Shown piece by piece: positions 7,398-15,949 of a DNA stretch of 17,360 bases. Source of the DNA: Candidatus Hermodarchaeota archaeon. Lineage in GTDB: Archaea > Asgardarchaeota > Lokiarchaeia > Sigyniarchaeales > SOKP01. The stretch is taken from positions 1 through 17,360 of the forward strand of contig JBHLLG010000057.1 in NCBI GenBank assembly GCA_048885925.1. Reading direction: 5' to 3'. A program made the position numbers and the translations under genes. Below the pieces are notes generated by a model. The model was given only the letters and a program-made list of their open reading frames with translations, was not told where the DNA came from and made no database searches. Each line of letters begins with the position of its first letter. The first letter of the stretch is position 1.

Positions 7398-8933
7398 TTA
7401 GTTTTTTGTTTTTCTTTGCATCGTTTTTCCAAATTTTTCCAGCATTTTTCTTGGTGTAACTGTTGGGCGCTCATATCTTTTTAATTTCGATTTTATACCA
7501 AAAACATACTTTGAAATATCCTTAAGTCTTTCTGTATCATAGCGCATCATCATTGTGATAGTCTCCATAGCTGGACTGCCTCCACCGTGTAACCCAGCAA
7601 CTTGCATTAACCCCGCTAAATCTGAAACCACCATACCTTCTATTCCTCTGAAACATCGATAAATATTCTCTGGTTTAACTCTAGGATTTCGTTTCAAATA
7701 TTTCATGGCGAGATCCCCAACTTCTTTAGAGAAAAATGATCCTTCATAAGGTAAAGTGGCAATTAATCCTCCTGATAAATCTGCTAGGATTTTATATTCT
7801 TCATAAATATTTTCTCCTGCTAATCTTCTACCAGCGTTAGTAAGTATCTCATCTGGAATTTGCGTACCTGATGGAGACTTTTCTGAATGTTTTGCGCTTG
7901 ACTCTCCTGCAGCAAAAACAAGTTCGGCAATTCCAATAATATGAGATAATTTATCTTGAACATGAGATGCTTTTTCTATTCCGTTATATTCTGCAACTAG
8001 AGCAGCAGCAGAAGCAAGAACTTCCGACATTGCGGGTTTACAACCTGTATATGTGTGACGATGATAATGGGCAAACATTAAAGCTAAAAATCCCGCATAG
8101 GGTGTTTGTCGTGGATCACCATGACCATTCATGAATACTCGATCATTTGGGACGAAAACATCATCAAATATAATAAAAGTCTCAGCATCTCCTATATGAG
8201 TACCTGGAGCGTCTAAATGTTCACTCTGTCTATAATATGCTGGTCTTGTTAACAATTTTATACCTTCCCAATCTCCTGGTAAAGCAAATGAAACGGCATA
8301 ATCTTTATCTTCAGGACCCATGTATCTACATGGAACGACAATAAATTCATCTGCGTAAGGTGTGTTAGTAATATTAATCTTACATCCCCTAACTACAATT
8401 CCATCATCTCTTGTTTCAATAACTCTAAGATATTGATCTGGATCTTCTTGTTGATGGGGTCTTTTTAAACGATCTCCTTTTGCATCTGTCTGAGCACAAC
8501 TTGCTACTACATCCTTATCTTGAAAATATTCCAAATACTTGAGAAATCTCTTATAATGTTCTGTTCCTAAGGCTTGATCCATCTCATACGTGATAATAGA
8601 AAGTGCATTCATTGCATCAATACCCATACATCTTTGAATACAACCTGCAACACGATGACATAAAAGACGAGTCATTTTCTGCTTTTTTAATAGGTCTTCT
8701 TCACTCTGATGTATATGACAAAATCGGTTTATTTTTTTACCAGTTAAGTGGGAAGTTGTTACGCATAGATCTTCATATTCTGGGTCTTGAGCGCAATCAA
8801 ACGTCTCTTTAATAATATTCATACCTCCTCGAAGACGAGGGTCGTCTCTACCTACTCTTTCCTCACCAATGTATATATTGGGCTTCATTTTCTTTAAATC
8901 TTCAACATATTGTTCAAATGTACGAATTCTAAT
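7398..8933 (-). CDS. abfD: 4-hydroxybutyryl-CoA dehydratase/vinylacetyl-CoA isomerase-like protein (AbfD/HpaB family)
   Basis: Fe-S ligand motifs CIQRC (Cx3C) and HRHTYTGC (Hx6C), QTDAKGDR, HGGGSP. The frame extends 15 codons upstream of ATG 8888 (IRIRTFEQYVEDLKK), matching the family N-terminus and implying an ATT start near 8933. Confidence 0.8.
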   Translation of the reverse strand: MRIRTFEQYVEDLKKMKPNIYIGEERVGRDDPRLRGGMNIIKETFDCAQDPEYEDLCVTTSHLTGKKINRFCHIHQSEEDLLKKQKMTRLLCHRVAGCIQRCMGIDAMNALSIITYEMDQALGTEHYKRFLKYLEYFQDKDVVASCAQTDAKGDRLKRPHQQEDPDQYLRVIETRDDGIVVRGCKINITNTPYADEFIVVPCRYMGPEDKDYAVSFALPGDWEGIKLLTRPAYYRQSEHLDAPGTHIGDAETFIIFDDVFVPNDRVFMNGHGDPRQTPYAGFLALMFAHYHRHTYTGCKPAMSEVLASAAALVAEYNGIEKASHVQDKLSHIIGIAELVFAAGESSAKHSEKSPSGTQIPDEILTNAGRRLAGENIYEEYKILADLSGGLIATLPYEGSFFSKEVGDLAMKYLKRNPRVKPENIYRCFRGIEGMVVSDLAGLMQVAGLHGGGSPAMETITMMMRYDTERLKDISKYVFGIKSKLKRYERPTVTPRKMLEKFGKTMQRKTKN

Positions 8934-9060
8934 CCACTCTTGATTTAAAAATTATATTTTAAATTAATATAATATAAGTAATTGAGAAAAGATTATAAAT
9001 TAAATGCCTAATTAAATAAGTTATAGAAGTTATAACCATTTTAGGGGTTTTTTTACATAT

Positions 9061-11124
9061 TTAAGCTTTTAATTTAGGAACTTTAGTAATAAATATTTTT
9101 TTAATTAAGGTTTCAAGCAATGGTTGATCTTTTAATTCAATTACTCTATTAGATTTATAAAATTTATTCATAGTCTCCCAAATCGTATTTGATTTTTGTA
9201 TATGTTTAACAAATCGTAAAAATTTTTGTTTTGCGAGATAAGTTTGACCCTTGAATAAATAACATATTGAGAAAAGGCTAACAGATTGCATAAGTATCGT
9301 ATATTCACCAAATTTGGCTCTATCCAGTCTTTTCGCAAAAAGTTCTTGGCTAAAGTTATTAAAGGCAGTTAAAAATCCACTGATTAAATCATCTTCGAAT
9401 GACAATTCTTTTATAAATTGGTTAGAAAATAGTGGAACACCACCTTCTGAGATAATTAAAAGTAAAACTGGTATTTCATGAGATAATTTTGGGAGTTCTA
9501 TTGTGCTTTTTCCTTGCATACGATTGATAACTCCATCAAAGGATGCAAGTTTTATCCTTTCTGACATTGGGGCATCTTTTTTTTTAAGACTATCCCAAGT
9601 GTTCAATTGTTCTAATAGTACATCATACTCATTAGAGATTTTTATAGCTAGTAAGTCAAGACCGTGCATTTCTGCAATTTGTTGGGCTTGTGTTAATAAA
9701 ATCTCTGCTTCTTCGATTTTCATTTGAATTAATGCTACTTTAGCTTGCAATAATTTAGTTTCAGTTAACCATAAATATGAGTTTTGTTTTTCCGCTATTT
9801 CAAATATTCGAGATATTAAAGGATTTAGATCCTCTAAAATTTCAAGGTTATTAGTAATATATAATTCCTCTAGATATAAATCACAAAGATTAACTATTGC
9901 TAAAAGATATAATTGGGGAATAGCATATTCATCTTTTGAGACTTCTATCAATAAGTTTTCAGCTTCAGCCCTACTCCTCATTCTACCACTCCTTTTCAAT
10001 ACTAAAGCTTTTGCAATCATATTTAATTGTTTAAACACATTTGTTTCATTTTGTTTCGTGAATTCTTCTAGCTTTTCTAAATATGAATGTGCTTTTTCAG
10101 GAAAATTATTGTCTAAATTTGTAAGAATCAAATAAAAAAGTGATGAACTTATCCCATAAAGGTTATTGTTTTCTTCAGAAAGTCTTAAACTTTTCATAAG
10201 GTATTTTGTAGCTTGATCAAAATCTCCTTTCATTCTATATGTTGCACCAATTCCCATTGTATTTTCTATGAAACCTTCTAAATATCCCTCCTTTTCAGCA
10301 AGTTTTGCTGCACGACCATAATATCTTAATGTTCTATCTATATTTCCTTTATCTTTATAAATAGCGCCTAAAAGATGTAAGGTTGCAAGTTTGGTAAAAA
10401 TACTAATTTCCTTTATCATTAAGCTTCGCCTACCAAACTTTAGAGCTTTACTGAAATCACCTTTTCTAAAATGACTAAATCCTATGAAACTAAGGCTTGT
10501 CGCAATACCTATCGGATTTTTTAATTCTTCTTGTAATTCTAGACTTTTCAATCCGTAATTTAAAGCAATATTAGGATTATTTTTTAAAAGATAAATATCT
10601 ACTAATAAGTTATAAATACGTGAAATTTCAAGCTTTTCCCCTAAATGTTCTAGTATAGATAAACATTGTTTTGCTAATTTTAATGCTTTAGTATGATCTG
10701 TTCTAAAATGATAAGCCATCATTTTTATAATTTGTAAATTTGCTTCCAATGTTGGAAACTCAGAAGCTAAATCTTCAGAAATAAGTTTGATAAGTTTCTC
10801 AGCTTCTTTAATATATTTATAACCTTGCTCTACATTCCCAAGATATACCGTATATGCTTTGATAAGAAGAGATTCAATAGAATGAAATATAGAACTTAAT
10901 TTTTGACTCAGTTGATAAGCAAGTTCCCCAACTTCTATGGCTTGCTTATACTGTTCTTTATAGCAAAATATCTTTCCTTTTAAAATATATAAAGATAACT
11001 GATCTTTAGTGTTATCGAATTTGCTTTCTTCGAGAATTTTAATTAGTTCAAATGCTTTTTCAAATTTAGCTTGTTGTATTAGTTGTTGTACTTGAAGTAA
11101 CTCTTTGGATGTTAAATTAGACAA
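9061..11124 (-). CDS. TPR-repeat protein with C-terminal longin-like domain
   Basis: Multiple TPRs (IATSLSFIGFSHFRKGDFSKAL, TMGIGATYRMKGDFDQATKYL). The C-terminus LLLIISEGGVPLFS...LISGFLTAFNNFSQELF is longin-like. TTG start with upstream GGAGA. Confidence 0.8.
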   Translation of the reverse strand: MSNLTSKELLQVQQLIQQAKFEKAFELIKILEESKFDNTKDQLSLYILKGKIFCYKEQYKQAIEVGELAYQLSQKLSSIFHSIESLLIKAYTVYLGNVEQGYKYIKEAEKLIKLISEDLASEFPTLEANLQIIKMMAYHFRTDHTKALKLAKQCLSILEHLGEKLEISRIYNLLVDIYLLKNNPNIALNYGLKSLELQEELKNPIGIATSLSFIGFSHFRKGDFSKALKFGRRSLMIKEISIFTKLATLHLLGAIYKDKGNIDRTLRYYGRAAKLAEKEGYLEGFIENTMGIGATYRMKGDFDQATKYLMKSLRLSEENNNLYGISSSLFYLILTNLDNNFPEKAHSYLEKLEEFTKQNETNVFKQLNMIAKALVLKRSGRMRSRAEAENLLIEVSKDEYAIPQLYLLAIVNLCDLYLEELYITNNLEILEDLNPLISRIFEIAEKQNSYLWLTETKLLQAKVALIQMKIEEAEILLTQAQQIAEMHGLDLLAIKISNEYDVLLEQLNTWDSLKKKDAPMSERIKLASFDGVINRMQGKSTIELPKLSHEIPVLLLIISEGGVPLFSNQFIKELSFEDDLISGFLTAFNNFSQELFAKRLDRAKFGEYTILMQSVSLFSICYLFKGQTYLAKQKFLRFVKHIQKSNTIWETMNKFYKSNRVIELKDQPLLETLIKKIFITKVPKLKA

Positions 11125-11261
11125 AAAATATTATCTCCATTTATAAATCAAAATATAGAATTTAAGAACTATTTAATGGGCATTTCAATAAAAAAAGAAG
11201 AATATTTTGCTTAAAAGACTTTGTAAAAGCTTTCTTTTCTATATGAGAGTTAATGAATAAT

Positions 11262-13499
11262 TTAAAACTCAAAAGGATTTATTGGTTTGAAGATAAAGTC
11301 TTTTACTAAATTAAATTTGTTAATATACTCAGCTGGTTCATCCGTTCTACAGGCTCTTTTAAACTTACAATACATTTCAGTTGATAAGGGATATGGAAAT
11401 AAACATTTAAGGCAATTCTTATTTACTATACAATCTGTACAAGTTCTCTTTTCTACAGTTTCTTTTCTTAAATTTTTTAATTTTTGAACTATACTCTGAA
11501 AAGATGTTCCTATTTGTCCAATAGGATCGGAATACCAACAAATTCTAATTGAATTATCATTTCCGATAATCGCAGTTTCTAATGTCTGACAATTTGCTTG
11601 ATTATTCGTCCATCGACATAATTGCTGAAATTGAGGTAAAGGAATACTATCGAAAAGATATTTAAAAATATCTTTAGTATTTGAAAGTTCGATTAAAAAA
11701 TTATAAAGTCTTTCTGTGTCAATTGGATCATAATCTATTCCTATCGAGTAATCAATATCAGCAGAATTTTTTTTATATTCTTCTAAGACTAGATTTGTAT
11801 TTTTCAGTTTTATAGGTAAACCAATTTGTTGATTAAATAAGGCTATTCTTCCAGATCTTAAAGTAGACGAGTGATTAGAACGTTCTAAATAATAAGGTTC
11901 ATAATACAACGTCGGTGAGTATTCATTATAAAGAGTTTTTCTATTTTTTTCATGAAACTTTAAGAATTTCTTTTTATCTGAATGAATTTGAATGATTGCT
12001 CCATTTAAAGCAAGATTTTTTTGAAGACATTTTATGACTGAAGGTTTAATAACATCAGAGTTAATTATTGTATTGTCAAAATAAGATTTGTCTTTTGATC
12101 TTGTAGAGTATAACGATAAAATTTTGAGAGTGTTATAATCAAGTATCTCATTATTTTCTATTCTTGCACATTTAGGATGTACTTGTACTTTAAACACATC
12201 AAAGGGAAAACTATTTTTAAGGTGGACTCTATTTTTATGACCTATGGGATTAACCTTGTATCCATATTTCAAATAGTTTTGATAAATAGGAGTACCCTTA
12301 TAAATATGGAAAAAATTATGTGTATAAAAATCGATATCTAACTTATCTATAAATTTTATGGTTTTTTGAGCATCTTGAAGAGATTCACCGGGTAATCCAA
12401 TCATAATACTTACAAATACTTTTGCTATTCCAATCTTTTTTGCATATGATGTCATAGTCTTCAATTTATCAATAAACTCAATTTCTTTGTCAAATTCTGT
12501 CGCGTTTTCAGTTTTTGGAGGGCTAACTTTGCCTATTGTGTTTAACACTCTCGGAACTGCACTTTCTAATGAAAAACCTATTGAAGTAAAACCAGCTTGC
12601 TTCATTAAATCTAAAAGTTCTTCCGTAACTTTATCACAACGAGTAAGACAAATAAGTGGTATTTGTAGATTATTTTCGATTATTGCTTCACAAATTTTTT
12701 TTGCTCGTTTTGGTAGTATTGTAAATGTATCATCATTAATAGGAACTGGACTCAAGAATTTTTTATAATCGTTAATATATGTTAATTCTTCAATTACTCT
12801 CTCTATTGAGTGAAAAAAAATATTTCTTTTACTTATTACCGCACAATTACAATAAGTACAATTCTGATTGCATCCTCTAGCGGTAGTTACCCCTGTTGGA
12901 AATGCTTTGGATTTAGGAATAATCTGCGAAAGATACGGAGATGGATATTTATCAATATAATTTTTAACAAATCTATTTGATAGCAAAACATTACAATCTG
13001 GATTTATGATAATTTTATCTTTATGCTTAAATGTTATACCATTAATGTTAAAAAGTTCTGTTTGAATCAAGTCAAAGTTAGTATTAGAGAAAGCTAATAG
13101 TAATTTAAGAACAGTTTCTTCTCCTTCACCTCTAACACATAGATCAACACTGCCAATACTTTCCAAAATTTCCTTCGATTGAACACTTGGAGTAGGACCC
13201 CCAAATAGAATAATAATTTCAGAATTATACCTCTTTAAACCACTACTAATTAACACACATTGTATAAAGTTTGCTTCATAAACAGAGAATCCGACTATTT
13301 TAGGATTATAGCTCAAAATTCTCTTTACACATTCATTGACATTATAAGTTTCATCTGAGATGTACTGTTTTGCCTTGAAACCATGCTGCTTTAAATAGGC
13401 AATTATATAAGCTGATCCCAAATGATAACTAAAATTTGTGAAGTATAAATCACCACCAGAGGGAAAAACCATCAAGATCTCTAAAAAACTATCATCCAT
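11262..13499 (-). CDS. B12-binding radical SAM enzyme with C-terminal SPASM-like domain
   Basis: Cobalamin-binding domain (HLGSAYIIAYLKQHG, IVGFSV, GGPTPS, VRGEGEET), ARGCNQNCTYC Cx3Cx2C at 12849-12872, DDTF, SLES, MIGLPGES, GTPIY. C-terminal C...IGNDNSIRIC...IG...CTDCIVNKNCLKC...C. Confidence 0.9.
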   Translation of the reverse strand: MDDSFLEILMVFPSGGDLYFTNFSYHLGSAYIIAYLKQHGFKAKQYISDETYNVNECVKRILSYNPKIVGFSVYEANFIQCVLISSGLKRYNSEIIILFGGPTPSVQSKEILESIGSVDLCVRGEGEETVLKLLLAFSNTNFDLIQTELFNINGITFKHKDKIIINPDCNVLLSNRFVKNYIDKYPSPYLSQIIPKSKAFPTGVTTARGCNQNCTYCNCAVISKRNIFFHSIERVIEELTYINDYKKFLSPVPINDDTFTILPKRAKKICEAIIENNLQIPLICLTRCDKVTEELLDLMKQAGFTSIGFSLESAVPRVLNTIGKVSPPKTENATEFDKEIEFIDKLKTMTSYAKKIGIAKVFVSIMIGLPGESLQDAQKTIKFIDKLDIDFYTHNFFHIYKGTPIYQNYLKYGYKVNPIGHKNRVHLKNSFPFDVFKVQVHPKCARIENNEILDYNTLKILSLYSTRSKDKSYFDNTIINSDVIKPSVIKCLQKNLALNGAIIQIHSDKKKFLKFHEKNRKTLYNEYSPTLYYEPYYLERSNHSSTLRSGRIALFNQQIGLPIKLKNTNLVLEEYKKNSADIDYSIGIDYDPIDTERLYNFLIELSNTKDIFKYLFDSIPLPQFQQLCRWTNNQANCQTLETAIIGNDNSIRICWYSDPIGQIGTSFQSIVQKLKNLRKETVEKRTCTDCIVNKNCLKCLFPYPLSTEMYCKFKRACRTDEPAEYINKFNLVKDFIFKPINPFEF

Positions 13500-13588
13500 A
13501 TTAATTCAATTCTCCAAAATCAAAATTTTAAAATTAGGATCTTAATGTAAAGCTCATATTCAATTGAAGTATATTCTAAAACTATAAA

Positions 13589-13600
13589 TTAAAAAAATGG
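13589..13600 (-). terminator. Oligo-T terminator after small gene A
   Basis: CCATTTTTTTAA on the minus strand about 35 nt after the stop. Identical at 14149-14160. Confidence 0.45.
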
Positions 13601-13635
13601 AATAAAGATTATAAATCTTAAATCTAATCTCATTT

Positions 13636-13905
13636 TTAACCTGCTGTAACCCAATAACCAAGAATAGTACATACTTCCTTTAAATTCTCATCACTTATAG
13701 CTGGATTTAATCCCTTTTTTTTAAGACATTCTTTAATTGCTTTTATCATACCTTTTTGATCTGTTTTTGAAATCTGCACTCCGTTGCCTATACATTCCTG
13801 AATACACTCAGCAAGGTCTTCACCAATAGCAGGTCCATATCTTTCTATAAGACGATGTCGTATAGTTTGTTTCAAATCAATTCTTACGTTTGGTATTTTT
13901 AACAC
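13636..13905 (-). CDS. Small Cys-containing protein, putative radical SAM substrate/RiPP precursor (copy A)
   Basis: Paralog of 14196-14450 (28/36 identical over residues 4-39), ECIQECI motif, C-terminus LGYWVTAG. True start is possibly ATA at 13896. Confidence 0.8.
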   Translation of the reverse strand: MLKIPNVRIDLKQTIRHRLIERYGPAIGEDLAECIQECIGNGVQISKTDQKGMIKAIKECLKKKGLNPAISDENLKEVCTILGYWVTAG

Positions 13906-13942
13906 CTCAAAATTTTAGAATTTCGCTTTTAATTATAATAAC

Positions 13943-14011
13943 ATGTAAATTAGTTAAATTTCTTACATTATAGTAAAATATATTTACATGTTTAAAAATA
14001 TATTATATTTT
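13943..14011 (-). promoter_or_regulatory. Promoter region with ATGTAA-N14-TTACAT palindrome (copy A)
   Basis: Half-sites at 13943-13948 and 13963-13968. TATA-like TTTTAAA on the minus strand at about 13991-13997. Conserved in copy B. Confidence 0.6.
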
Positions 14012-14148
14012 GATTTTAAAATAAAAAGTATTTTTTCTAAAATTTCTTAGAAAAGAAGATAAAATGGGTCTCAAAAATCAAAATTACAAATATTTAAGAT
14101 CATAAGGTTAAGCATAAATTCGACAGTAATATATTCTAAAATGAAATA

Positions 14149-14160
14149 TTAAAAAAATGG
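14149..14160 (-). terminator. Oligo-T terminator after small gene B
   Basis: CCATTTTTTTAA on the minus strand at the same distance from the stop as in copy A. Confidence 0.45.
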
Positions 14161-14195
14161 AAAAAATATTAATAGTACTAAATCTATTCTCAACT

Positions 14196-14450
14196 TCAAC
14201 CTGCTGTAACCCAATGCCCAAGTAAACCAAATACGTCATCTATATCTATTGCTTTATAATCTTCTTCTTTAAGCTTATCAGAAAGACATTTTTCGATACA
14301 ATCTTTTAAATCATTACCTTTATATCCTGCGGCTATGCACTCCTGAATACATTCAGTAATTATAAGGCCAATTCTGGGGCCATGTCTTTCTATAAGACGA
14401 TGTCTTATAGTTTGATTCAAATCAATTCTTAAATTTGGTATTACTCTCAC
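14196..14450 (-). CDS. Small Cys-containing protein, putative radical SAM substrate/RiPP precursor (copy B)
   Basis: Paralog of 13636-13905, twin Cx3C (CIQEC, CIEKC), C-terminus LGHWVTAG. True start is possibly ATA at 14441. Confidence 0.8.
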   Translation of the reverse strand: MRVIPNLRIDLNQTIRHRLIERHGPRIGLIITECIQECIAAGYKGNDLKDCIEKCLSDKLKEEDYKAIDIDDVFGLLGHWVTAG

Positions 14451-14487
14451 CTCAAAATTAGTGAATTTCGCTTTTAAATTAATTGAT

Positions 14488-14556
14488 ATGTAACTTTGCA
14501 GCTTTTGTTACATTATAGTAAAATATTTTTGCATGTTTAAAAATATATTATATTTT
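14488..14556 (-). promoter_or_regulatory. Promoter region with ATGTAA-N14-TTACAT palindrome (copy B)
   Basis: Half-sites at 14488-14493 and 14508-14513. The TATA-like block is identical to copy A. Confidence 0.6.
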
Positions 14557-14632
14557 CATTGTGAAAATTATGTAGATTTTAGAAAATTTTTATCAAAAAA
14601 AAAAATAGGTTATAATTTTAGGAAACTCAGTT

Positions 14633-14890
14633 TTAATAAACTGCATGATTTCTAAAGTATATTTTATTCTTTACATCTTCTATTGATTTTGTCTCTTGTA
14701 GATATTTAGCATTATATCTAACTTTTTCAAATAATTTTAATAACGCTTTTTTAGGTTTTTTCTCTCGTTCAATCTCTTTAGGTTCCTCAAGTTGTTCCTG
14801 CTCTTCGACAGGAACCTCTTCTAAAATTATAATTTCTTCCAATATTATACTATTTTTAAAATCTTTTCCCTTCTTTAATACTTGTACCAT
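14633..14890 (-). CDS. Small hypothetical protein (85 aa; acidic middle, basic C-terminus)
   Basis: ATG preceded by RBS AGGTGA at 7 nt spacing. Coding-like E/K-rich composition. Confidence 0.7.
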   Translation of the reverse strand: MVQVLKKGKDFKNSIILEEIIILEEVPVEEQEQLEEPKEIEREKKPKKALLKLFEKVRYNAKYLQETKSIEDVKNKIYFRNHAVY

Positions 14891-14910: not shown

Positions 14911-15177
14911 TTATTTTAAATTTCTTAATCCAAATTTATATTTCTCTGGGTGTAGATAATAATGACTAGATGATTGTTTCCATCTTTTTAACGCTCTTTT
15001 TTGTGCTATTGAGTCTGATTCATCCTTAACAGGTGAGATTTCTTTATTCATATTCTCACTTATTTCAAATGGAATTTCTAAACTCAAATTATTGGTTGCT
15101 TCCTTGCTTTCTTCTTTATAAAATACATAAAAGAATTCCTTGAAATCCGGTACAATAATTTTTTCACTTTCAGTCAG
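14911..15177 (-). CDS. Small hypothetical protein (88 aa), CTG start, absent from the ORF track
   Basis: GAGGTGGTGA-aat-CTG followed by 88 open codons (TESEKIIVPDFKEFFYVFYKEESKE...RWKQSSSHYYLHPEKYKFGLRNLK). Stop is 20 bp before the next ATG. Confidence 0.65.
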   Translation of the reverse strand: MTESEKIIVPDFKEFFYVFYKEESKEATNNLSLEIPFEISENMNKEISPVKDESDSIAQKRALKRWKQSSSHYYLHPEKYKFGLRNLK

Positions 15178-15391
15178 ATTTCACCACCTCTATTTTTCAC
15201 TTTTACTTTTTTTGAGCTTTAAATATAATTAGATTAACCTTCTATTTTTAGTTTCTTTTACTGAACTTTGAGTGGACTCTTGGACAAATATTGGAAAACA
15301 AAAAATAAATGAATATAATTAAAAAAGAAATTATTTTATTTTTTCTAATAGAATCCTAAAAAATGATTAGAGTTTAAATAATAAATTGAAT

Positions 15392-15949
15392 TTATCCTTC
15401 TGCTAATAAAGTCTTAGATTTGTGGTACAATTCATTAATAATGTTATTAAATGCTTCAATAACTCCTTGACCCGTTTTGGCAGAAGTTATAAAATATCCA
15501 AAGAACTTTCGATCATTACTTATTTTTTGGATAAATGTTTCATTTAAATCGTTTTCATCAATCAAATCGACTTTGTTAGCGAATAGAACGACAGGAACGT
15601 CTCCGCAGAAGTTTATGATATCTTCATGCCATTTAGGGATATGATAGAAGCTTTCCTTACCAAGATCATTTTCTTCAAGGCTATATACAATTATAGCAGC
15701 TTTACTATTTTTAAAAAAAGAGGGTCGAGCAAAATTGAAATCATCTTGACCAGCGATATCCCAAAACATTAATCTTATTTTATCTTGATCAATCTCTTTA
15801 TCATATATAGAAAATTGAGCTCCAATTGTTTTGATATAGTCTTTCTGAAATGATCCTCTTGTAAATTTTTTGATTAGGGACGTTTTACCGACTCTTCCGT
15901 CTCCTACTAAAGTTATTTTAAATATAAATTTCGACCCTATATCATTCAT
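15392..15949 (-). CDS. Rab-like Ras-superfamily small GTPase
   Basis: GDGRVGKT, TIGAQF, WDIAGQD, NKVD, TSAKTG. No prenylation motif. Confidence 0.93.
   Translation of the reverse strand: MNDIGSKFIFKITLVGDGRVGKTSLIKKFTRGSFQKDYIKTIGAQFSIYDKEIDQDKIRLMFWDIAGQDDFNFARPSFFKNSKAAIIVYSLEENDLGKESFYHIPKWHEDIINFCGDVPVVLFANKVDLIDENDLNETFIQKISNDRKFFGYFITSAKTGQGVIEAFNNIINELYHKSKTLLAEG

Follow-up and report, generated by a model that had tools for sequence, protein, structure and literature searches.

A small four-helix protein and a B12-type radical SAM enzyme mark a candidate protein-modification system in Asgard archaea

Results

Gene organization of the locus

The window (the whole 17,360-nucleotide stretch of DNA analysed here) carries, on its minus strand, two small ORFs upstream of an ORF encoding a 745-amino-acid (aa) protein (Table 1). 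Both the ORF list and BLASTP agree with the original prediction that two co-oriented paralogous small genes lie directly upstream of a B12 radical SAM gene. The two small proteins share 47% identity (BLASTP E 3e-25), contain four Cys each, including those of ECIQEC, and have in common the N-terminus, the ECIQECI motif, and the L-G-[YH]-WVTAG end that had been read from the sequence. Each small gene has its own conserved upstream block and its own downstream block with a T run, which may serve as promoter and terminator, respectively, judging from their sequence features. GAGGTG, followed by 6 nt and then the start, occupies the same position in the window small genes and their orthologues. Further small ORFs also occur nearby.

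Table 1 Features of the small protein–radical SAM locus in the window.
Feature	Position	Strand	Description
TPR protein, 687 aa, with C-terminal longin/roadblock-like domain	9061..11124	-	TPR_12 E 4.9e-22; MalT-like TPR
B12-binding radical SAM enzyme, 745 aa	11262..13499	-	Family-specific middle domain and Cys-rich C-terminal domain
SPASM-like Cys-rich domain	11367..11618	-	C628-X8-C637-X16-C654 ... C687-X2-C690-X5-C696-X2-C699-X11-C711
Middle alpha/beta domain, residues 425-625	11625..12227	-	Matches no known family
Radical SAM core, residues 206-384	12348..12884	-	PF04055 E 8.4e-18; CX3CX2C at C210, C214, C217
B12-binding (Rossmann-type) domain, residues 25-133	13101..13427	-	PF02310 E 3.5e-15
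Conserved downstream block, copy 1, T7 run	13560..13635	-	Terminator-like; between small gene and radical SAM gene
Small protein copy 1	13636..13905	-	89 aa from GTG; BLASTP paralog of copy 2
Copy 1 tail YWVTAG	13639-13656	-	Stop at 13636-13638
Copy 1 probable ATA start	13894-13896	-	Gives 86 aa
Conserved upstream non-coding block, copy 1	13906..14013	-	A/T-rich promoter-like stretch and GAGGTG ribosome-binding site
Conserved downstream block, copy 2, T7 run	14120..14195	-	Terminator-like
Small protein copy 2	14196..14450	-	84 aa; twin CX3C (ECIQEC ... DCIEKC)
Copy 2 tail HWVTAG	14199-14216	-	Sequence
Copy 2 probable ATA start	14439-14441	-	Gives 81 aa
Conserved upstream non-coding block, copy 2	14451..14559	-	Nearly identical to copy 1 block

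The TPR gene is next to the radical SAM gene in 25 of 26 loci from genomes and in 13 of 20 from metagenomes, and its distribution in the genome loci is nearly the same as that of the small gene; it is usually the third member of the block. For the C-terminal 158 aa of its product, ESM-Atlas gave a match to a Roadblock/LAMTOR2 cluster (score 0.82), which we regard as a lead only. In three genomes of the same genus, HpaB lies directly beside the MVQVL ORF, and the TPR, radical SAM, and small genes are all absent. At this site, these genes form a clean presence/absence block.

Domain structure of the radical SAM enzyme

PF02310 and PF04055 both matched the 745-aa ORF, in agreement with its earlier description as a B12-binding radical SAM enzyme. 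The AF2 model of the enzyme (pLDDT 81.9, pTM 0.87) matched the structures of CysS (Z 22.2), MgmA (21.2), TsrM (21.0), AprD4 (21.0), TokK (20.1), and OxsB (19.5), Foldseek returned the class B radical SAM fold with E 3.6e-16, and the B12-binding domain matched cobalamin-binding domains with Z of about 10–11. The N-terminal half of the enzyme is thus modelled as a class B (cobalamin) radical SAM fold. C210, C214, and C217 of the core are invariant in all 26 orthologues. The middle domain showed no Pfam match common to the 26 members at E<=10, and its profile found a single match among PDB sequences (E 0.26). No RRE/PqqD domain was detected in the enzyme.

The original prediction also assigned a SPASM domain to the enzyme. 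The part of this claim that stands is the Cys pattern: the eight C-terminal Cys (628, 637, 654, 687, 690, 696, 699, and 711) do not vary among the 26 orthologues and are retained in three more distant metagenome homologues. NCBIfam TIGR04085 (SPASM domain) matched three of the 26 C-terminal domains (best E 8.9e-4), and a homologue is named 'radical SAM protein with 4Fe4S-binding SPASM domain' in one source. On the other hand, Pfam SPASM did not match the C-terminal 325 aa even at E<=10. The Cys-rich domain, which a 200-aa domain sets apart from the radical SAM core, is weakly suggested by its sequence to be SPASM-like.

Features of the small-protein family

The small protein matched no described family, as had been supposed, and our literature search found no description of a system combining it with a B12 radical SAM enzyme. 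The AF2 model of copy 1 (pLDDT 73.0, pTM 0.61) predicts a folded four-helix bundle rather than a disordered peptide. The N-terminus, which had been proposed to be a free leader, forms part of this predicted bundle. None of 50 small proteins matched the Nif11 or NHLP leader models, and a GG cleavage site ahead of the tail is absent in the Asgard small proteins.

Among 71 distinct family members, 16 contain no Cys and five contain only one. Where Cys do occur, they are arranged as a twin CX3C on predicted helices 2 and 3, and two twin-CX3C families, zf-Tim10_DDP and DUF842, weakly matched 5 and 6 of the 50 small proteins, respectively, which suggests a structural staple. The Cys-free small proteins at four loci (L028, L029, L033, and L036) accompany intact enzymes with all conserved Cys present. 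Since 16 of the 71 members lack Cys, these residues are unlikely to be the modification sites that the original prediction had considered.

The most widely kept feature of the family is the C-terminal tail, aromatic(-4)-x-[T/I](-2)-[V/A/I/L](-1)-Gly(0), usually at the protein's very end. A C-terminal Gly is found in 47 of the 71 distinct members, and in 43 of these position -4 is W, F, Y, or H; position -2 varies among T, I, L, A, K, and G. In most of the 24 tails not ending in Gly, the same motif is extended by 1 to 13 residues, as in GVPPP... or GR, and the motif is wholly missing in a few members (e.g., L031 and P0078). The small protein has diverged much faster than the enzyme, with identities to the window copy of 10–51% versus 42–72%. 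The conserved tail is the best candidate modification site.

Linkage of the small gene and the enzyme gene

To take a census of the enzyme, its C-terminal domain was searched in 399 genomes of the phylum. The enzyme was found in 27 genomes: the window's genome and 20 of 52 genomes in its own genus, 5 of 42 in a second genus, and one of two in another family; all belong to one order and most to one genus, so that as kin they are not independent. The Asgard assignment is based on the source names of homologous clusters and records, such as Promethearchaeota and Lokiarchaeota. The co-occurrence check put forward in the original prediction bore it out: the small-protein HMM matched 25 of the 399 genomes, every one of them an enzyme carrier, and no match came from the 372 genomes that lack the enzyme. 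In the two enzyme genomes missed by the HMM (L034 and L035), a divergent small ORF still lies upstream. By contrast, the MVQVL ORF, the KRWKQS ORF, and the neighbouring Ras-like GTPase persist in enzyme-less genomes.

A co-oriented ORF of 62–98 aa lies directly upstream of the enzyme gene in all 21 same-genus loci. Such an ORF was also found upstream in all six loci of other genera, one behind an inserted TPR gene and one cut by the contig end, and in 14 of 20 metagenome loci; in four of the remaining six, the upstream DNA or the whole enzyme gene is missing. Tandem small genes occur in the window and at L024, L025, L073, and L081. Three of the 21 same-genus loci have tandem copies, in line with the expectation of multiple precursor copies beside a maturase. 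The pair is kept across two families, in unrelated gene contexts, and where the surrounding gene order is rearranged (L028, L040, and L042). L074, L075, and L078 are surrounded by unrelated metabolic genes and have no TPR gene; the pair is seen at L075 and L078, and L074 begins at the enzyme gene with the upstream DNA missing. The small gene thus recurs beside the enzyme in all 27 genomes, far more often than expected by chance, although co-inheritance would hold any neighbours together in physically linked genes of related genomes.

The most distant full-length homologues, which come from two contigs of metagenomes (L079 and L080), share 40% identity with the window enzyme and retain all 18 conserved Cys. 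Next to them lie precursors of recognized types and four or more additional B12 radical SAM genes. One of the precursors there scored above the cut-offs of TIGR03798 (34.3 bits; cut-off 32.3) and Pfam Nif11 (28.9 bits; cut-off 23.8); a second is NHLP-related, with 22.4 bits under a cut-off of 34.

Prediction of a complex between the small protein and the enzyme

Co-folding, proposed earlier as a check, gave a score of 0.45 (runs 0.50, 0.45, and 0.01), and the best of three controls scored 0.00. Contact agreement was at least 16%, and partner pLDDT was at least 54. Of 80 solved complexes, 58 attained the mark for complex scores, as did 2 of 110 mismatched pairs, but those passing at 0.60 or under comprised only 7 of the 80 solved complexes and both mismatched pairs. 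The prediction gives weak support for a complex, and it cannot separate a substrate from a partner.

Discussion

A candidate protein-modification system

The pair of a small four-helix protein and a B12-type radical SAM enzyme most likely marks an undescribed Asgard protein-modification system. For the more specific reading, a RiPP-like system in which the tail of the small protein is modified, we put the chances slightly above even. The linkage of the genes, the domains of the enzyme, the conservation of the tail, and the RiPP surroundings of distant homologues are observed; we infer the substrate role of the small protein, the tail as the site, the chemistry, and the binding of cobalamin and clusters. 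The radical SAM enzyme would make up a dedicated two-gene unit with the small protein, which is present in one or two copies and would be the enzyme's substrate; here the TPR/longin-like gene joins the unit. The helical body, often stapled by the twin CX3C, would dock onto the enzyme, and the flexible C-terminal tail would enter the active site. The enzyme would combine its B12-type domain and the SAM cluster with probably two auxiliary Fe-S clusters on the eight invariant Cys, and would start by removing a hydrogen atom from one of the tail residues. A methyl group could then pass from methylcobalamin to the tail, C-methylating an unactivated carbon; alternatively, an aromatic ring could be cross-linked to a neighbouring residue through a carbon-carbon bond. 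As anticipated, the window ORFs showed no protease or transporter, and the product would therefore probably stay inside the cell as a small protein bearing the modification.

Four other readings were weighed against tail modification. The small protein could be an accessory partner (a docking, chaperone, metal-binding, or regulatory subunit) of an enzyme whose real substrate lies elsewhere, for instance in the TPR/longin protein, a GTPase, a lipid, or a cofactor; we consider this unlikely but deserving of attention. A predicted folded bundle with a frequent twin CX3C that could bind metal would suit such a role, as would the missing protease and exporter, and the linkage and the weak complex score suit a partner equally well. 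Many B12 radical SAM enzymes use non-peptide substrates, and the NCBIfam models near the window enzyme include PhpK, HpnJ, and BchE. However, tandem copies with separate promoter- and terminator-like blocks, and a sequence that diverges very fast apart from one conserved motif at its end, are usual for substrates but not for subunits. The dispensable Cys and the distant enzyme homologues beside recognized RiPP precursors also argue against a partner. It is improbable that the tail is cleaved off once modified, leaving the small protein as the scaffold for a peptide-derived metabolite or cofactor. Mycofactocin and PQQ are small metabolites or cofactors made from peptide scaffolds in this manner, and the enzymes of their pathways have a SPASM domain comparable to the Cys-rich domain here. 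A short conserved motif on a long variable carrier would fit this reading, and the residues past the Gly in some members would fit later trimming. Against it stand the absence of a peptidase from the window, the variable residues at -4 and -2, which are unlike the precursor of one fixed cofactor, and the patchy distribution (27 of 399 genomes), which argues against a core cofactor.

That the small gene stands beside the enzyme gene by shared descent alone, with no functional link, appears quite improbable. The kinship of the genomes and the presence of other small ORFs nearby are compatible with it, but the MVQVL and KRWKQS ORFs and the Ras-like GTPase survive without the enzyme and the small protein never does, and the pair holds across two families, in unrelated contexts, and in rearranged gene orders. 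The least probable of the readings is that the Cys are the modified residues, carrying thioether or similar cross-links as in sactipeptides or ranthipeptides. The four Cys of each window copy and the SPASM-like domain had made this attractive, yet Cys-free members coexist with intact enzymes, and the position of the CX3C pairs on predicted helices points to a structural role.

Comparison with known systems

In proteusin-type clusters, precursors bearing Nif11 or NHLP leaders occur alongside multiple B12 radical SAM C-methyltransferases, for example PoyB and PoyC. Homologues of the window enzyme with the same Cys lie inside such a cluster at L079/L080, where a long helical N-terminal stretch of each precursor precedes the short part that is modified. 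The Asgard loci differ in their small proteins, which match neither leader family and have no GG site, and in having one radical SAM gene only. SPASM peptide maturases include PqqE, the three-residue cyclophane ('triceptide') enzymes, and MftC, whose target is the C-terminal Val-Tyr of MftA. They resemble the window system in having seven or eight Cys C-terminal to the core, a precursor gene directly upstream, and a short motif in which an aromatic residue precedes an aliphatic one by two positions (aromatic-x-T/I in the proposed target here). However, they have no B12-binding domain, and their SPASM domain directly follows the core; the Cys spacing of the window enzyme (CX2CX5CX2C) also differs, with no Pfam SPASM match and TIGR04085 matches in few members.

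MgmA (PDB 9ccb) and Mmp10 (PDB 7qbs) are archaeal class B radical SAM methylases of methyl-coenzyme M reductase; they alter the side chain of a protein, as we propose for the window enzyme. MgmA was the second-best structural match (rmsd 4.3, 358 residues aligned), and Mmp10 gave Z 9.6. Unlike the system proposed here, their target is a large enzyme subunit, not a dedicated small protein, and they have neither the middle nor the Cys-rich domain; the NCBIfam MgmA model scored 57 bits on the window enzyme against a cut-off of 360.

According to the aminopyruvatide preprint (bioRxiv 10.1101/2023.10.30.564719), the B12 radical SAM enzyme ApyD beta-methylates the penultimate Tyr in the GYLYD motif of the precursor ApyA. 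ApyD/ApyA thus provides a cobalamin-type radical SAM enzyme acting on an aromatic residue in a short conserved C-terminal precursor motif, as proposed for the window. The same text describes an RRE domain in ApyD and a P450, an MNIO, and a methyltransferase as its partners, whereas the window enzyme has no detected RRE, carries the extra 200-aa and eight-Cys domains, and is not accompanied by other tailoring enzymes. Among NCBIfam models, ApyD ranked second on the window enzyme (E 1.1e-28), and the ApyA models gave E of only 0.4–2 on the small protein. Membership of the window enzyme in ApyD was rejected (100 bits; cut-off 750).

PbsB, which acts on biphenomycin-like peptides, is likened here on the basis of its description. 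According to that report (PMC12257519), PbsB needs prior MNIO hydroxylation, targets an FHAFRF motif rather than a C-terminal tail, and has a protease in its cluster, in all of which it differs from the window system. It is nevertheless a B12 radical SAM enzyme that forms an aryl-aryl C-C cross-link instead of methylating, and its cluster, like the Asgard locus, contains several precursor copies upstream and a TPR-containing protein.

Gene organization around the radical SAM gene

The window spans an entire contig (17,360 bases). Its source genome is 3.9 Mb in size and is rated 95% complete, and the G+C content of the window is 24-37%. Besides the minus-strand series listed in the table, the window contains ORFs for a GH20 hexosaminidase, a GMP-synthase-like PP-loop protein, a pirin, an amidohydrolase, a HEAT-repeat protein, a second Ras GTPase, a winged-helix protein, and a 320-aa protein without a family. 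In agreement with the original prediction, a Pfam scan covering the window found no leader protease, exporter, or transporter among its ORFs. Rfam and tRNA scans of the window gave no match.

Minus-strand gene series around the radical SAM gene, in transcription order
Feature	Position	Strand	Remark
Ras-family GTPase	15392-15949	-	First of the series
KRWKQS small ORF	about 14911-15180	-	Without family, conserved
MVQVL small ORF	14633-14890	-	Without family, conserved
Small protein copy 2	14196-14450	-	
Small protein copy 1	13636-13905	-	
Radical SAM gene	11262-13499	-	745 aa
TPR protein gene	9061-11124	-	687 aa
HpaB-family gene	7398-8888	-	Last of the series

The MVQVL and KRWKQS ORFs, named after their sequences, are kept beside a Ras-like GTPase gene and a winged-helix gene across the genus and are also found in genomes without the radical SAM block. 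The KRWKQS ORF is conserved in orthologues from the first codon after the stop (NLTES...), and its first ATG, GTG, or TTG appears only at residue 32. Since the conserved part starts right after GGTGA, a CTG or ATT start is possible.

Linkage of the small gene and the enzyme gene

We searched 399 genomes of the phylum with the C-terminal domain of the enzyme and found it in 27, consisting of 20 of the 52 genomes of the window's own genus and the window's genome, 5 of the 42 genomes of a second genus, and one of the two genomes of a genus from another family. The co-occurrence anticipated in the original prediction was borne out: the small-protein profile matched 25 of these 27 genomes and none of the 372 genomes without the enzyme. 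In the two genomes that the profile missed, strongly diverged small ORFs occupy the expected position (loci L034 and L035). Among the genomes searched, the system is restricted to one order of Asgard archaea.

A co-oriented small ORF lies directly upstream of the enzyme gene in all 21 own-genus loci. All six loci outside this genus also have a small ORF upstream, with a TPR gene inserted between it and the enzyme gene at L040 and a contig end cutting L039. Thus counted, a precursor-like gene adjoins and is co-oriented with the maturase gene in 27 of 27 genome loci. Tandem small-gene copies were found in the window and at L024, L025, L073, and L081. A family member is present upstream in 14 of the 20 metagenome loci, which are not independent cases because some of their contigs probably duplicate genome contigs. 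Four of the other six lack upstream DNA or a whole enzyme gene, and two are L079 and L080, which carry distant homologues. A contig scan with the enzyme C-terminal alignment returned 14 loci, all on contigs already among the known loci; 12 are titled as Asgard MAGs (Promethearchaeota, Hodarchaeota, or Thorarchaeota) and two as 'uncultured archaeon'.

Two loci showed irregular structures. At L040, the small gene is directly followed by a short ORF similar to the enzyme N-terminus (...KKYTDILFIRPVGEDF...), like a rearrangement scar. L069 (1070-1555) encodes only the C-terminal 145 residues of the enzyme, directly before a TPR gene and with no N-terminal part upstream; it is either a decayed locus or an assembly artefact.

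Duplication and start codons of the small genes

Small protein copies 1 and 2 are 47% identical (BLASTP E 3e-25). The paralogy and shared ends claimed for them were confirmed, as their N-termini and L-G-[YH]-WVTAG ends are near-identical and their middles are variable. The flanks of the two copies are also near-identical, both upstream (ca. 110 nt, with an A/T-rich stretch and a GAGGTG ribosome-binding site) and downstream (ca. 80 nt, with a run of seven T), and resemble each other more than the mid-coding regions do. Judged by this comparison, the surrounding DNA is duplicated along with the small genes, and since near-identical flanks enclose both, each copy looks like its own transcription unit. 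When 13560-14090 was compared with 14120-14640, the flanks and the first and last coding parts were near-identical and the mid-coding part differed, with insertions or deletions, which points to gene conversion at the ends or a swap of the middle.

An ATA codon occupies the position where other orthologues have the ATG start in both window copies (13894-13896 and 14439-14441, minus strand) and in two orthologues (L019, 9912-9914; L020, 1501-1503), in each case 6 nt after GAGGTG. At L020, an in-frame TAA lies directly before the ATA, which rules out the upstream GTG as the start codon of that gene. These features suggest an ATA start codon for these four genes.

Features of the small protein family

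We built a profile from 24 upstream ORFs and, on searching 1.84 billion representative proteins with it, obtained 65 matches at E<=0.001. Fifty-nine of them are the same kind of protein (56-117 aa), and the remaining six, long repeat proteins of 295-2,150 aa, were set aside as presumed low-complexity matches. The 59 matches and the 24 locus ORFs yielded 71 distinct sequences, among which three truncated or chimeric ones were kept. Forty-seven of the 71 end in Gly, and 43 of these 47 have W, F, Y, or H four residues before it. At position -2 of this tail, T (24) and I (12) prevail, as does V (28) at position -1. In most of the other 24 sequences, 1 to 13 residues follow the same motif (e.g., ...NYETIGR or ...ITIHGVPPPTEPSL), and a few are without it. 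In the small-protein alignment, the terminal Gly is invariant because its 50 sequences were chosen from the 71 mostly with that ending; the unbiased count is 47 of 71.

The number of Cys residues varies among the 71 members (none in 16, one in 5, two in 23, and four in 20). When present, they form CX3C pairs (ECIQEC ... DCIEKC) on predicted helices 2 and 3. Families with twin CX3C motifs gave weak matches, zf-Tim10_DDP (PF02953) in 5 of 50 sequences (best E 5.4e-4) and DUF842 in 6 of 50. Membership in the Tim10/DDP type was rejected, as the PF02953 threshold was not reached and 16 of the 71 members have no Cys; the likeness is in the motif only.

AlphaFold2 predicted a four-helix bundle (helices 8-20, 22-37, 44-60, and 69-85; pLDDT 73.0, pTM 0.61), with low confidence at the first seven and last three residues. 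Foldseek against PDB gave no match at E<=0.001 and only generic helical likenesses, and the ESM Atlas gave no usable match. Pfam and NCBIfam assigned no family to the small protein, with only scattered weak matches, and none of the 50 small proteins matched the Nif11/NHLP leader models (TIGR03798, TIGR04509, and PF07862) at E<=10.

Domain architecture of the enzyme

The enzyme has a B12-binding Rossmann-type domain at residues 25-133 (PF02310; E 3.5e-15, 56.3 bits, cut-off 32.1) and a radical SAM core at residues 206-384 (PF04055; E 8.4e-18). The CX3CX2C cluster motif (C210, C214, and C217) is invariant in all 26 orthologues. We compared an AlphaFold2 model built on the 26 orthologues (pLDDT 81.9, pTM 0.87) with solved structures. 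The top match was CysS (Z 22.2, rmsd 3.7, 383 aligned), and further matches were MgmA (Z 21.2), TsrM (21.0), AprD4 (21.0), TokK (20.1), and OxsB (19.5); Foldseek gave E 3.6e-16 to 2.8e-10 against solved class B radical SAM enzymes. Residues 3-165 align to cobalamin-binding domains at Z of about 10-11. The part matching solved cobalamin-dependent radical SAM enzymes is the N-terminal 450-550 residues; the matched rows of the whole-model search span residues 3-520 and barely cover the C-terminal third. According to the model, the N-terminal half has the fold of class B (cobalamin-dependent) radical SAM enzymes. Methyl transfer is not proven by this fold in itself, as one of the top matches, AprD4, is a listed diol dehydratase. 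The best NCBIfam models were those of the PhpK family and ApyD, and all NCBIfam scores were far under the cut-offs, placing the enzyme in no named subfamily.

The core is separated from the Cys-rich part by a conserved alpha/beta domain of about 200 aa (residues 425-625). This middle domain had no family match in Pfam and none by profile against PDB sequences. No PqqD match indicative of an RRE was obtained in the whole enzyme or, at E<=10, in the 26 middle domains.

Eight Cys residues at positions 628-711 are invariant in the 26 orthologues and are also present in three more distant homologues. Their spacing is C637-X16-C654, with a Gly 7 residues before C654, followed by C687-X2-C690-X5-C696-X2-C699-X11-C711; C628 is the eighth. 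The seven-Cys pattern of SPASM domains is CX9-15GX4C ... CX2CX5CX3C ... C, which the residues fit in count and order and from which two spacings differ. Pfam SPASM (PF13186) gave no match at E<=10 on the C-terminal 325 aa, TIGR04085 matched weakly in 3 of 26 members (best E 8.9e-4), and two further SPASM-enzyme models matched 2 and 1 of the 26. A profile of the C-terminal domain against PDB sequences found no SPASM enzyme and nothing related; one source names a homologue as carrying a SPASM domain. With fitting Cys number and order and this thin sequence support, we call the domain SPASM-like. The SPASM assignment originally proposed finds partial support: eight invariant Cys run in SPASM-like order, family matches are few and weak, and the domain does not directly follow the radical SAM core, as about 200 aa intervene. 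The enzyme joins a B12-type domain to a probable double-cluster domain. We are not aware of a described enzyme combining a B12 domain with a SPASM-like domain of this kind, and none was found in a limited body of literature, which is not proof of absence.

Distant homologues in a RiPP-type cluster

L079 and L080 (metagenome, 45-47% G+C) encode homologues of 745 and 757 aa that are 40% identical over the full length and keep all 18 conserved Cys. Their neighbours include a Nif11-like precursor that exceeds the cut-offs of TIGR03798 (34.3 bits; cut-off 32.3) and Pfam Nif11 (28.9 bits; cut-off 23.8), a peptide related to NHLP that stays under its cut-off (22.4 bits; cut-off 34), and at least four further B12 radical SAM genes. 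By this context, the enzyme family falls among peptide maturases, and no other indirect evidence speaks as strongly for a peptide or protein substrate in the Asgard loci. Together, L079 (1-10378) and L080 (1-6037) represent a large RiPP-type cluster holding two 745-aa-type enzymes, and its NHLP-like precursor has a Thr/Val/Ala/Ser-rich core.

Presence of the block and its TPR/longin-like gene

In three genomes of the same genus without the enzyme (G069, G067, and G098), HpaB directly adjoins the MVQVL ORF, which is followed by the KRWKQS ORF, a Ras-like GTPase gene, and a winged-helix gene. The products of all these genes, HpaB included, are 51-94% identical to those of the window. These empty sites indicate that the TPR, enzyme, and small genes (about 9030-14630) form a single presence/absence block. 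The GTPase gene and the other two small ORFs occur independently of it. Filled and empty sites share a conserved spacer on the HpaB side, and no flanking or direct repeats were seen at the block edges when they were compared.

A TPR/longin-type gene is the enzyme gene's neighbour in 25 of 26 genome loci; a contig end interrupts the remaining locus, and the sequence that continues it has the same arrangement. Such a gene also adjoins the enzyme gene in 13 of 20 metagenome loci. At L075 and L078, the small gene and enzyme gene lie among unrelated metabolic genes with no TPR gene, and at L074 the enzyme gene, at which the contig starts, has a similar metabolic setting. Since the pair is found without the TPR gene in metagenome loci, the pair is the conserved core and the TPR protein a frequent third member.

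For the C-terminal 158 residues of the TPR protein, a Roadblock/LAMTOR2 cluster was obtained as a lead only (score 0.82). Proteins of the TPR/longin-like family have multiplied strongly, the richest genomes having at least 22 among the matches listed (E<=1e-40). Relatives in the genus are often beside Ras-like GTPase genes, and several have in-frame stop codons. A 48%-identical TPR/longin gene on contig C154 of genome G068 lies in an unrelated context and is uninformative.

Predicted complex and candidate reactions

Co-folding of the enzyme with small protein copy 1, each with its alignment, gave a weak score of 0.45 (runs 0.50, 0.45, and 0.01), and the best of three controls gave 0.00. Of 80 solved complexes, 58 attained this mark, compared with 2 of 110 mismatched pairs; only 7 of the 80 solved complexes, along with both mismatches, passed at a score of 0.60 or under. 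Agreement between the runs covers at least 16% of contacts, and the partner pLDDT is at least 54. The co-fold suggested with the original prediction thus exceeded its controls, but weakly, with one run near zero, and does not tell a substrate from a partner. The predicted complex slightly raises the odds of a link between the pair and would fit either role alike.

The pair most likely constitutes a system of RiPP-like or protein-modifying type. With its helical body, the small protein would dock on the enzyme, where the middle domain is a candidate receiver, and the flexible tail would enter the active site. Since the window has neither protease nor exporter, the product probably stays in the cell as a modified small protein.

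As for the chemistry, two candidates are almost equally probable, the first being C-methylation of an unactivated carbon via methylcobalamin. A precedent is ApyD, whose target is the penultimate Tyr of the C-terminal GYLYD in ApyA, methylated at its beta-carbon (bioRxiv 10.1101/2023.10.30.564719). The B12-type domain fits methylation. Some SPASM enzymes link an aromatic residue to the residue two positions on, and the near-invariant aromatic residue at -4 with T or I at -2 fits a carbon-carbon cross-link involving an aromatic ring, which we regard as the second candidate. A precedent for this reaction is PbsB, described in PMC12257519 as a B12 radical SAM enzyme making a carbon-carbon cross-link at an aromatic ring. 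A reaction other than these two is somewhat less likely than either.

In most own-genus loci, the block lies within a few kilobases of Ras-like GTPase genes. With its TPR/longin-like member, the block might therefore touch the regulatory systems for which Asgard archaea are studied. An Asgard-specific post-translational switch, in which the enzyme puts a carbon-based mark on the small-protein tail and the TPR domain reads this tail, feeding small-GTPase regulation in place of a natural-product pathway, seems improbable to us. Should the product prove to be no more than an ordinary modified peptide, the system would be mainly of enzymological value.

Comparison with known systems

To our knowledge, modification of proteins or peptides by radical SAM enzymes has been described in only a few archaeal cases. 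We found no description of the Asgard pair or its small-protein family in the literature, where supplementary tables may list such clusters, and no description of radical SAM protein or peptide modification in Asgard archaea. The passages of PMC13635244 on Asgard radical SAM enzymes and RiPPs do not treat the small-protein family. The locus defines a new small-protein family with a clear candidate site and offers a compact two-gene test case, in which the joined B12-type and probable double-cluster domains could mean new chemistry on an aromatic-aliphatic tail.

The Asgard system resembles named radical SAM maturase/precursor systems in its apparent working mode of enzyme and precursor, but it differs from them in belonging to no named subfamily, and its small protein is neither a Nif11 nor an NHLP leader. 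What is new compared with these systems is the combined enzyme architecture, a predicted four-helix carrier that ends in an aromatic-Gly tail, the confinement to a single Asgard order among the genomes searched, and the TPR/longin gene inherited with the pair.
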